A stretch of DNA of 5,958 bases from a virus. Its lineage: Duplodnaviria > Heunggongvirae > Uroviricota > Caudoviricetes. The DNA is taken from IMG/VR virus record IMGVR_UViG_2698536337_000006, one strand, 5' to 3'. Position 1 is the first letter of the stretch, and every line of letters starts with the position of its first letter. Made by a program: the position numbers and the translations under genes. Positions 4,877 to 5,129 of the stretch are shown in pieces. The notes below the pieces were generated by a model. It ran no database searches, was not told the origin of the DNA, and saw only the letters and a list, made by a program, of their open reading frames with translations.

Positions 4877-5129
4877 AGCTGGCGGGTCTTTCTGGCTGGC
4901 GGTTCAGGGTATTTGAGGTAGCGTCTGACCGTCCGTTCAGAGCAACCAATCTGAGTCGCAATATCGACGATGTACGCGCCCTGCTGGCGCATTTGCTTTA
5001 TCATGTAAAAGTCCTCTCTGCTCAGCATGTTGATGTCCTTTCTGGTGTGAGAACCTTAAGGAAACAACATGTTGGGTGGAGCGGACAATCCAAATGGCGA
5101 ATTACCGTCTTATATCACTGGCGCTGACA
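4877..5129 (-). mobile_element. istA: IS21-family remnant: left terminal inverted repeat (outer end TGTCAG at 5129) plus the first 50 codons of the istA transposase
   Basis: Minus-strand translation from the ATG at 5028 gives MLSREDFYMIKQMRQQGAYIVDIATQIGCSERTVRRYLKYPEPPARKTR, the helix-turn-helix N-terminus of IS21 IstA as I recall it. About 100 bp of IS end precede the ATG. Homology stops at ~4877-4880, where the lom sequence begins, so the rest of the IS is absent. Confidence 0.75.

Follow-up and report, generated by a model that had tools for sequence, protein, structure and literature searches.

An IS21-family insertion in a prophage tail-fibre gene of Shigella sonnei and a probable scaffold join next to it

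Gene content of the window

The stretch of DNA analysed here (the window; 5,958 nt) corresponds in its entirety to CXBL01000210.1, a contig of 5958 nt from the Shigella sonnei draft assembly GCA_001250715.1. A base-by-base comparison over the 5958 positions revealed a sole mismatch, at position 4877, where the public record has N and the window has A. It seems that the A was substituted for the N as an input replacement, by which scaffold joins are masked from anyone reading the letters. All genes of the window lie on the minus strand. Read in this direction, they are arranged as a lom gene cut by the contig end, a spacer with a hairpin, the beginning of a tail-fibre gene (stf'), the segment running from 5129 to 4877, the 3' part of lom, a complete stf, tfa, an AT-rich spacer and the end of an IS1. 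These features derive from two paralogous loci, hereafter locus 1 and locus 2.

The first lom (5540..5958, minus strand) has lost its 5' end to the contig end and is 100% identical to locus 1. It runs into a 142-bp stretch (5410..5551) that is common to both loci with exact identity and that takes in the 3' end of lom, a terminator-like hairpin and the initial 38 nt of stf. The following stf' (5130..5447, minus strand) comprises the 5' 318 nt, or 106 codons, of a second tail-fibre allele belonging to locus 2 and interrupted by IS21 (Pfam phage_tail_N, 1e-36). This part shows 99-100% identity to locus 2 in the records that carry it (L025-L032). Beyond it lies the left end of an IS21-family element (4880..5129, minus strand), followed by two bases, 4878..4879 (GC on the minus strand, where IS21 has CA), which end the left-hand piece of the contig, and by the scaffold gap at 4877..4877, that is, the N of the record.

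The right-hand piece starts with the 3' two-thirds of lom (4544..4876, minus strand; Pfam Ail_Lom, 4.1e-61). This part matches the locus 1 chromosomes at 100% identity and duplicates 5540-5872. Overall, 4414-4876 and 5410-5872 are identical copies, a duplication of 463 bp. The full-length side tail fibre gene of locus 1, stf (1362..4451, minus strand), bears the Pfam domains phage_tail_N, Phage_fiber_2 and Collar. Its product measures 1029 aa from a GTG start or 1027 aa from an ATG, and the exact protein is present in S. sonnei chromosomes. The adjoining tfa (781..1362, minus strand) codes for a tail-fibre assembly protein of 193 aa (Pfam Caudo_TAP, 4.6e-44), and an identical tfa adjoins stf in many S. 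sonnei chromosomes. The 63 bp at 1176-1238, within tfa, are absent from strain Ss046 (L002; presumably CP000038), an indel polymorphism, and the tfa call is only 150 aa long in strain 53G (L017; presumably HE616528) and in two drafts. In addition, the 3' half of tfa matches the Rfam family IS009 (RF02111) at 821-1019 on the minus strand (218 bits, against a gathering score of 117); no Rfam match falls within the segment between 4877 and 5129.

The AT-rich region between tfa and IS1 (100-780) has no convincing ORF, and a 33-codon hydrophobic ORF, MKIQSKLIVLLNIIIAFILFELLAQKFGLSTLF, was read by eye at 415-516 on the plus strand. The contig ends inside a multicopy repeat, the outer end of an IS1, whose 31 nt (1..31) we take to be the IS1 inverted repeat. 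Window positions 1-1175 align to L002 14386-13212, and the DDE transposase gene of IS1 is found in that chromosome at 14605-15108, just past the aligned region. This same IS1 insertion downstream of tfa is common to all S. sonnei chromosomes retrieved.

The IS21-family element and its insertion in stf'

Over the 250 bp from 5129 to 4880 on the minus strand, the window agrees at every base (100% identity) with L001:3501-3750, where the left end of a complete 2130-bp element lies in Escherichia coli FDAARGOS_943 (L001:3501-5630); the same left end occurs in many other records. In the window, this part starts with the terminal repeat TGTCAGCGCCA at 5129 (5129-5119), continues with a leader of 101 nt and reaches the istA ATG at 5028, from which codons 1-49 can be read. 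The ends of the intact element, TGTCAGCGCCA on the left and TGTCAACGCCA on the right, match at 10 of 11 bases, and the left end in the window has the form of an IS21-family terminal repeat, in which the element starts with 5'-TG and ends with CA-3'. The intact copy, at which the sequence-only reading had advised looking for a target-site duplication, is flanked by CATC/CATC; short direct target duplications belong to the family and measure 4 bp for IS21.

The intact element codes for an IstA of 390 aa (NCBIfam NF033546, 284 bits, cutoff 160) and an IstB of 265 aa (NF038214, 302 bits, cutoff 200). In the IS21 family, IstA is a transposase that combines an N-terminal HTH with a DDE catalytic domain, and IstB, whose gene lies downstream of istA, is a helper ATPase of the AAA+ type. 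Taken alone, the IstA fragment of the window (codons 1-49) scores 25 bits with NF033546, below the cutoff of 160, and its matches to Pfam HTH_23 and HTH_7 also stay below threshold; its identity as IstA comes from the 100% DNA identity to the istA gene of the intact element. No istB is found in the window, where the piece ends at nt 250 of IS21, and the gene is present in the intact relative. Thus, IS21 has both ends, istA and istB, whereas the window has the left end alone, as a contig piece that stops there. Intact copies are labelled in RefSeq as 'IS21-like element IS21 family transposase', accompanied by the IstB helper ATPase. The assignment to the IS21 family is right because of the perfect left-end match, the IstA and IstB of the intact element, both above their NCBIfam cutoffs, and the RefSeq label. 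The sequence-only reading, which had proposed an IS21-family left end with its terminal repeat and the N-terminus of IstA, had named the absence of any such match as grounds for giving it up; the match to IS21 proved to be perfect. We presume that the element is the canonical IS21 of plasmid R68.45. Its copies are widespread on plasmids of Escherichia, Shigella, Klebsiella and Salmonella and on chromosomes of enteroinvasive E. coli (EIEC).

The outer end of the element lies in the tail-fibre gene, as had been proposed. The junction 5129|5130 follows nt 318 of stf' counted from GTG, which is nt 312 (codon 104) counted from ATG, and its letters are CCGGAGGTGATGAAG|TGTCAGCGCCAGTG. The intact stf' allele of EIEC FDAARGOS_944 (L004) is identical to the window up to ...GAGGTGATGAAG and then goes on as CGCTTTGAGG, whereas the window reads TGTCAGCGCC. 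Hence, an IS21-family element sits in the tail-fibre gene of a prophage and ends at the very point from which the intact allele carries on, and the earlier suggestion of an inactivated tail fibre is borne out in that stf' is interrupted by IS21. The outer junction was seen in S. sonnei records only. Not one of the 5426 complete E. coli genomes has it, and it was absent from the species-representative genomes and metagenome contigs scanned.

In EIEC FDAARGOS_944 (L004:2383-6312), the intact stf' allele codes for 470 aa, and next to it come a DUF4376 gene and then ipaHa, a type III secretion system effector gene. Therefore, the interrupted S. sonnei gene is of the kind found in prophage remnants that carry ipaH.

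The insertion probably arose by ordinary IstA/IstB transposition, in which an IS21-family element would have entered the region coding for the N-terminal domain of the second tail-fibre gene, after nt 312 from the ATG. The right end, with its copy of the target duplicate (expected to be GAAG), would have been lost later: the right IS21 end at the stf' site is missing both from the window and from the closed genome described below.

The same copy can be followed in S. sonnei FDAARGOS_90 (CP010829; L025), a closed genome in which the stf' allele, the insertion point and the IS21 sequence are all the same as in the window. At L025:8313-11854, stf' nt 1-312 (from ATG) are followed by IS21 nt 1-428 without interruption, past nt 250. 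A complete IS600 sits in the element at nt 428, with a 3-bp duplication, GTT, after which IS21 picks up again at nt 429 and stops at nt 1098, against a second IS600. This one is inverted and has lost 85 bp from one end, while its intact end abuts stf nt 746. Therefore, nt 1099-2130 of IS21 (the remainder of istA and the whole of istB) and nt 313-745 of stf have been lost. Over 4880-5551 of the window, identity between the two is 99.4%, and all four differences fall in the lom-stf spacer. They differ in what precedes stf'::IS21, which is lom2 in the closed genome and lom1 in the window.

In at least one closed genome, then, this IS21 copy was degraded by later IS600 events. The earlier idea of a later truncation is thus right insofar as the L025 copy is a remnant of later events; the breaks and the partners are different ones, and lom is not involved.

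Two loci in one contig

Locus 1 was examined in at least 14 chromosome-length S. sonnei records (4.7-5.0 Mb; L002, L005-L012 and L015-L021), retrieved through Stf or Tfa. In S. sonnei chromosomes this locus has the order J-lom-stf-tfa-IS1 and is intact. The locus 1 chromosomes match window positions 1-4876 at 99.9-100% (with the 63-bp gap in L002) and then pass directly into the part of lom found at 5873-5958. The intervening 996 bp (4877-5872) are absent from every locus 1 chromosome retrieved.

Locus 2 has the order J2-lom2-stf'::IS21. The closed genome CP010829 and seven draft contigs code for the 108-aa Stf' that results from the ATG start. Seven of the locus 2 contigs (L025-L031) reach the upstream lom, and in each of them it is a different lom, about 90% identical to that of the window. 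The change of partner is sharp, since window positions 5077-5551 are 100% identical to several locus 2 drafts and beyond 5551 the identity is only about 90%.

The contig therefore combines two loci, because 5410-5958 is 100% locus 1 while stf' normally follows lom2. By these identities, the pieces running from 5958 to 5410 and from 4876 to 1 are locus 1, and the piece from 5551 to 4880 is locus 2; the shared stretch from 5551 to 5410 could come from either.

The inner junction

Between 5129 and 4877, the sequence-only reading had described a 253-bp IS21 stub that was fused at its inner end to the middle of lom. The N of CXBL01000210.1 falls at 4877, precisely the start of that stub and the proposed point of fusion between IS21 and lom. 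On the minus strand, the bases 4879-4877 read GCT where IS21 has CAA and lom has GGG, so that neither source matches, and lom homology restarts at 4876. The IS part is accordingly 250 bp long and not 253, as 4878-4879 match neither IS21 nor lom. Among the best of 9490 places with lom in E. coli, no allele extended past 4876 to supply the three junction bases. Inspection by eye found no microhomology exactly at the breakpoint, and a loose similarity about 10 nt deeper in IS21, considered as a junction microhomology, does not fit the observed join.

The ORF that spans the junction (4867-5028) consists of 49 IstA codons followed by Q-L-L-T-stop, 53 aa in all. The earlier figures of about 50 istA codons and about 53 codons for the ORF are therefore sound as counts of the letters; the ORF itself does not stand, given that its reading crosses the N at 4877. 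An exact-protein look-up of the 53-aa IstA' product returned zero matches because the N puts an X in the product of the public record. The look-up of the 110-aa Stf' that begins at GTG was likewise empty, because gene callers start stf' at the ATG; the 108-aa version led both to locus 2 and to CXBL01000210.1. An internally truncated stub should be continuous across its internal breakpoint. At that point the record has an N, and IS21 runs unbroken through nt 250 in the closed genome.

In our view, the window is very probably a chimeric scaffold from a short-read S. sonnei draft, and none of the three features, the stub, its fusion to lom and the ORF of 53 codons, is real. The assembler would first have left the locus 1 lom and entered the stf' of locus 2 via the 142-bp exact repeat, and the assembly would then have extended 250 nt into the multicopy IS21. 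Finally, the scaffolder would have linked this IS21 end, by one N, to a piece that begins mid-gene in the locus 1 lom. Such mis-threading and scaffolding would leave an apparent insertion of 996 bp, a duplication of 463 bp and an IS21 'stub' joined to lom. Locus 2 of the isolate itself presumably resembles that of FDAARGOS_90.

We read the inner join as an artefact because of the N, the piece boundaries at exact repeats of roughly k-mer length, the behaviour of sister drafts, the false joins of which the presumed pipeline is capable and the absence of the junction elsewhere. Regarding the boundaries, a run of 32 nt shared without mismatch by lom1 and lom2 begins at 4876. The contig stops at 5958, which is 34 nt away from the end of an exact run of 56 nt, and at its opposite end it reaches 31 nt into IS1. 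In sister assemblies of this accession series, a break or an N join lies no more than 15 nt from the same lom position, and sister drafts end 31 or 53 nt into IS21. In one of them (L033), a P2-type tail-fibre gene is linked to lom by a single N, and single Ns are frequent in these drafts. The sister drafts with accessions beginning CX and CW also show joins made by a single N and stf fragments repeated in tandem; in L003, for example, three stf-like ORFs follow one another.

In the output of Velvet, SSPACE and GapFiller, a single N stands for a gap that is negative or was left unresolved. Its accession series and its pattern of Ns suggest that GCA_001250715.1 was made by a pipeline of these three programs. 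For the high-throughput Velvet/SSPACE/GapFiller pipeline at Sanger, 299 assemblies of S. sonnei are listed, which average 405 contigs; its joins are marked by N, and its greedy tools are capable of false joins (PMC5320598). The window resembles scaffold joins of this type in its single N, in piece ends placed at repeats and in sequence duplicated on either side.

With respect to other genomes, no place in the 5426 complete E. coli genomes covers at least 80% of 4700-5300, and the inner junction was not found in species-representative genomes or metagenome contigs. The last two scans are uninformative for the inner junction, because the real outer junction is also missing from both collections. 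Two observations count against an artefact: a lone N could in principle be an ambiguous base in continuous sequence, and the GC before the N is unexplained by the assembly scenario.

The same two bases are the sole hint of a reading that we regard as unlikely, in which the join to lom is artificial and the IS21 of this isolate truly changes at nt 250-252, for instance by a mobile element or a deletion within the gap. The arrangement would in that case depart from that of FDAARGOS_90, still with no fusion to lom. The left-hand piece ends in GC where IS21 nt 251-252 are CA, and the sister drafts stop instead at IS21 nt 31 or 53. Such a change would also agree with the variable IS content of S. 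sonnei isolates, exemplified by the IS600 at nt 428 in the closed genome. However, two bases at the end of a gap-filled contig are weak evidence, and the closed genome is unaltered at nt 250. A common IS21 deletion derivative of F plasmids does not help either, as it breaks at nt 425 and not at 250, and it was discarded as the source of the break. This derivative (590 bp; L043:301-890), which numerous F-type plasmids in E. coli and Shigella carry, joins nt 1-425 to nt 1965-2130 and so retains both ends and zero genes. Its breakpoint lies at most 3 nt from the IS600 insertion point in L025.

Illegitimate joins with short filler are known, and the junction might be real as written, which we hold to be very improbable. 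In that event, in this one S. sonnei isolate, 533 bp (stf' plus IS21 nt 1-250) would have been copied from the locus 2 prophage into the lom-stf region of locus 1, entering by the 142-bp homology and returning illegitimately in lom, with 3 filler bases and the 463-bp duplication. Template switching or break-induced repair would be the mechanism, and the N would be merely an ambiguous base. The letters are internally consistent, and Shigella genomes are reported to be highly rearranged (PMC8072062). Yet the record has an N at the junction, all other genomes examined lack this junction, the breakpoints each fall at the edge of an exact repeat of roughly k-mer length, and drafts of the same project contain plainly false single-N joins. 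This reading requires three repeat-boundary coincidences and an ambiguous base precisely at the junction. If it were true, the locus would be a bacterial case of complex, microhomology-independent insertion-duplication between prophage paralogues.

Returning to the chimeric scaffold, the proposed fusion of a 253-bp stub to lom becomes a single-N scaffold join, at a point where IS21 is unbroken in the closed genome. Once the N was rendered as a base, this join passed for a gene fusion with a tandem duplication and an extra ORF. The stub had been recommended as a strain marker and would be a false one; the real marker is the outer junction between stf' and IS21, 5129|5130. Moreover, tail-fibre regions in this series of assemblies (accessions beginning CX and CW) should not be trusted without the reads. 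As for the biology, the real part of the locus is a known type of event in a genome known for such events. An IS21 in the tail-fibre gene of a cryptic prophage is ordinary in the IS-laden genome of Shigella and carries little biological weight.
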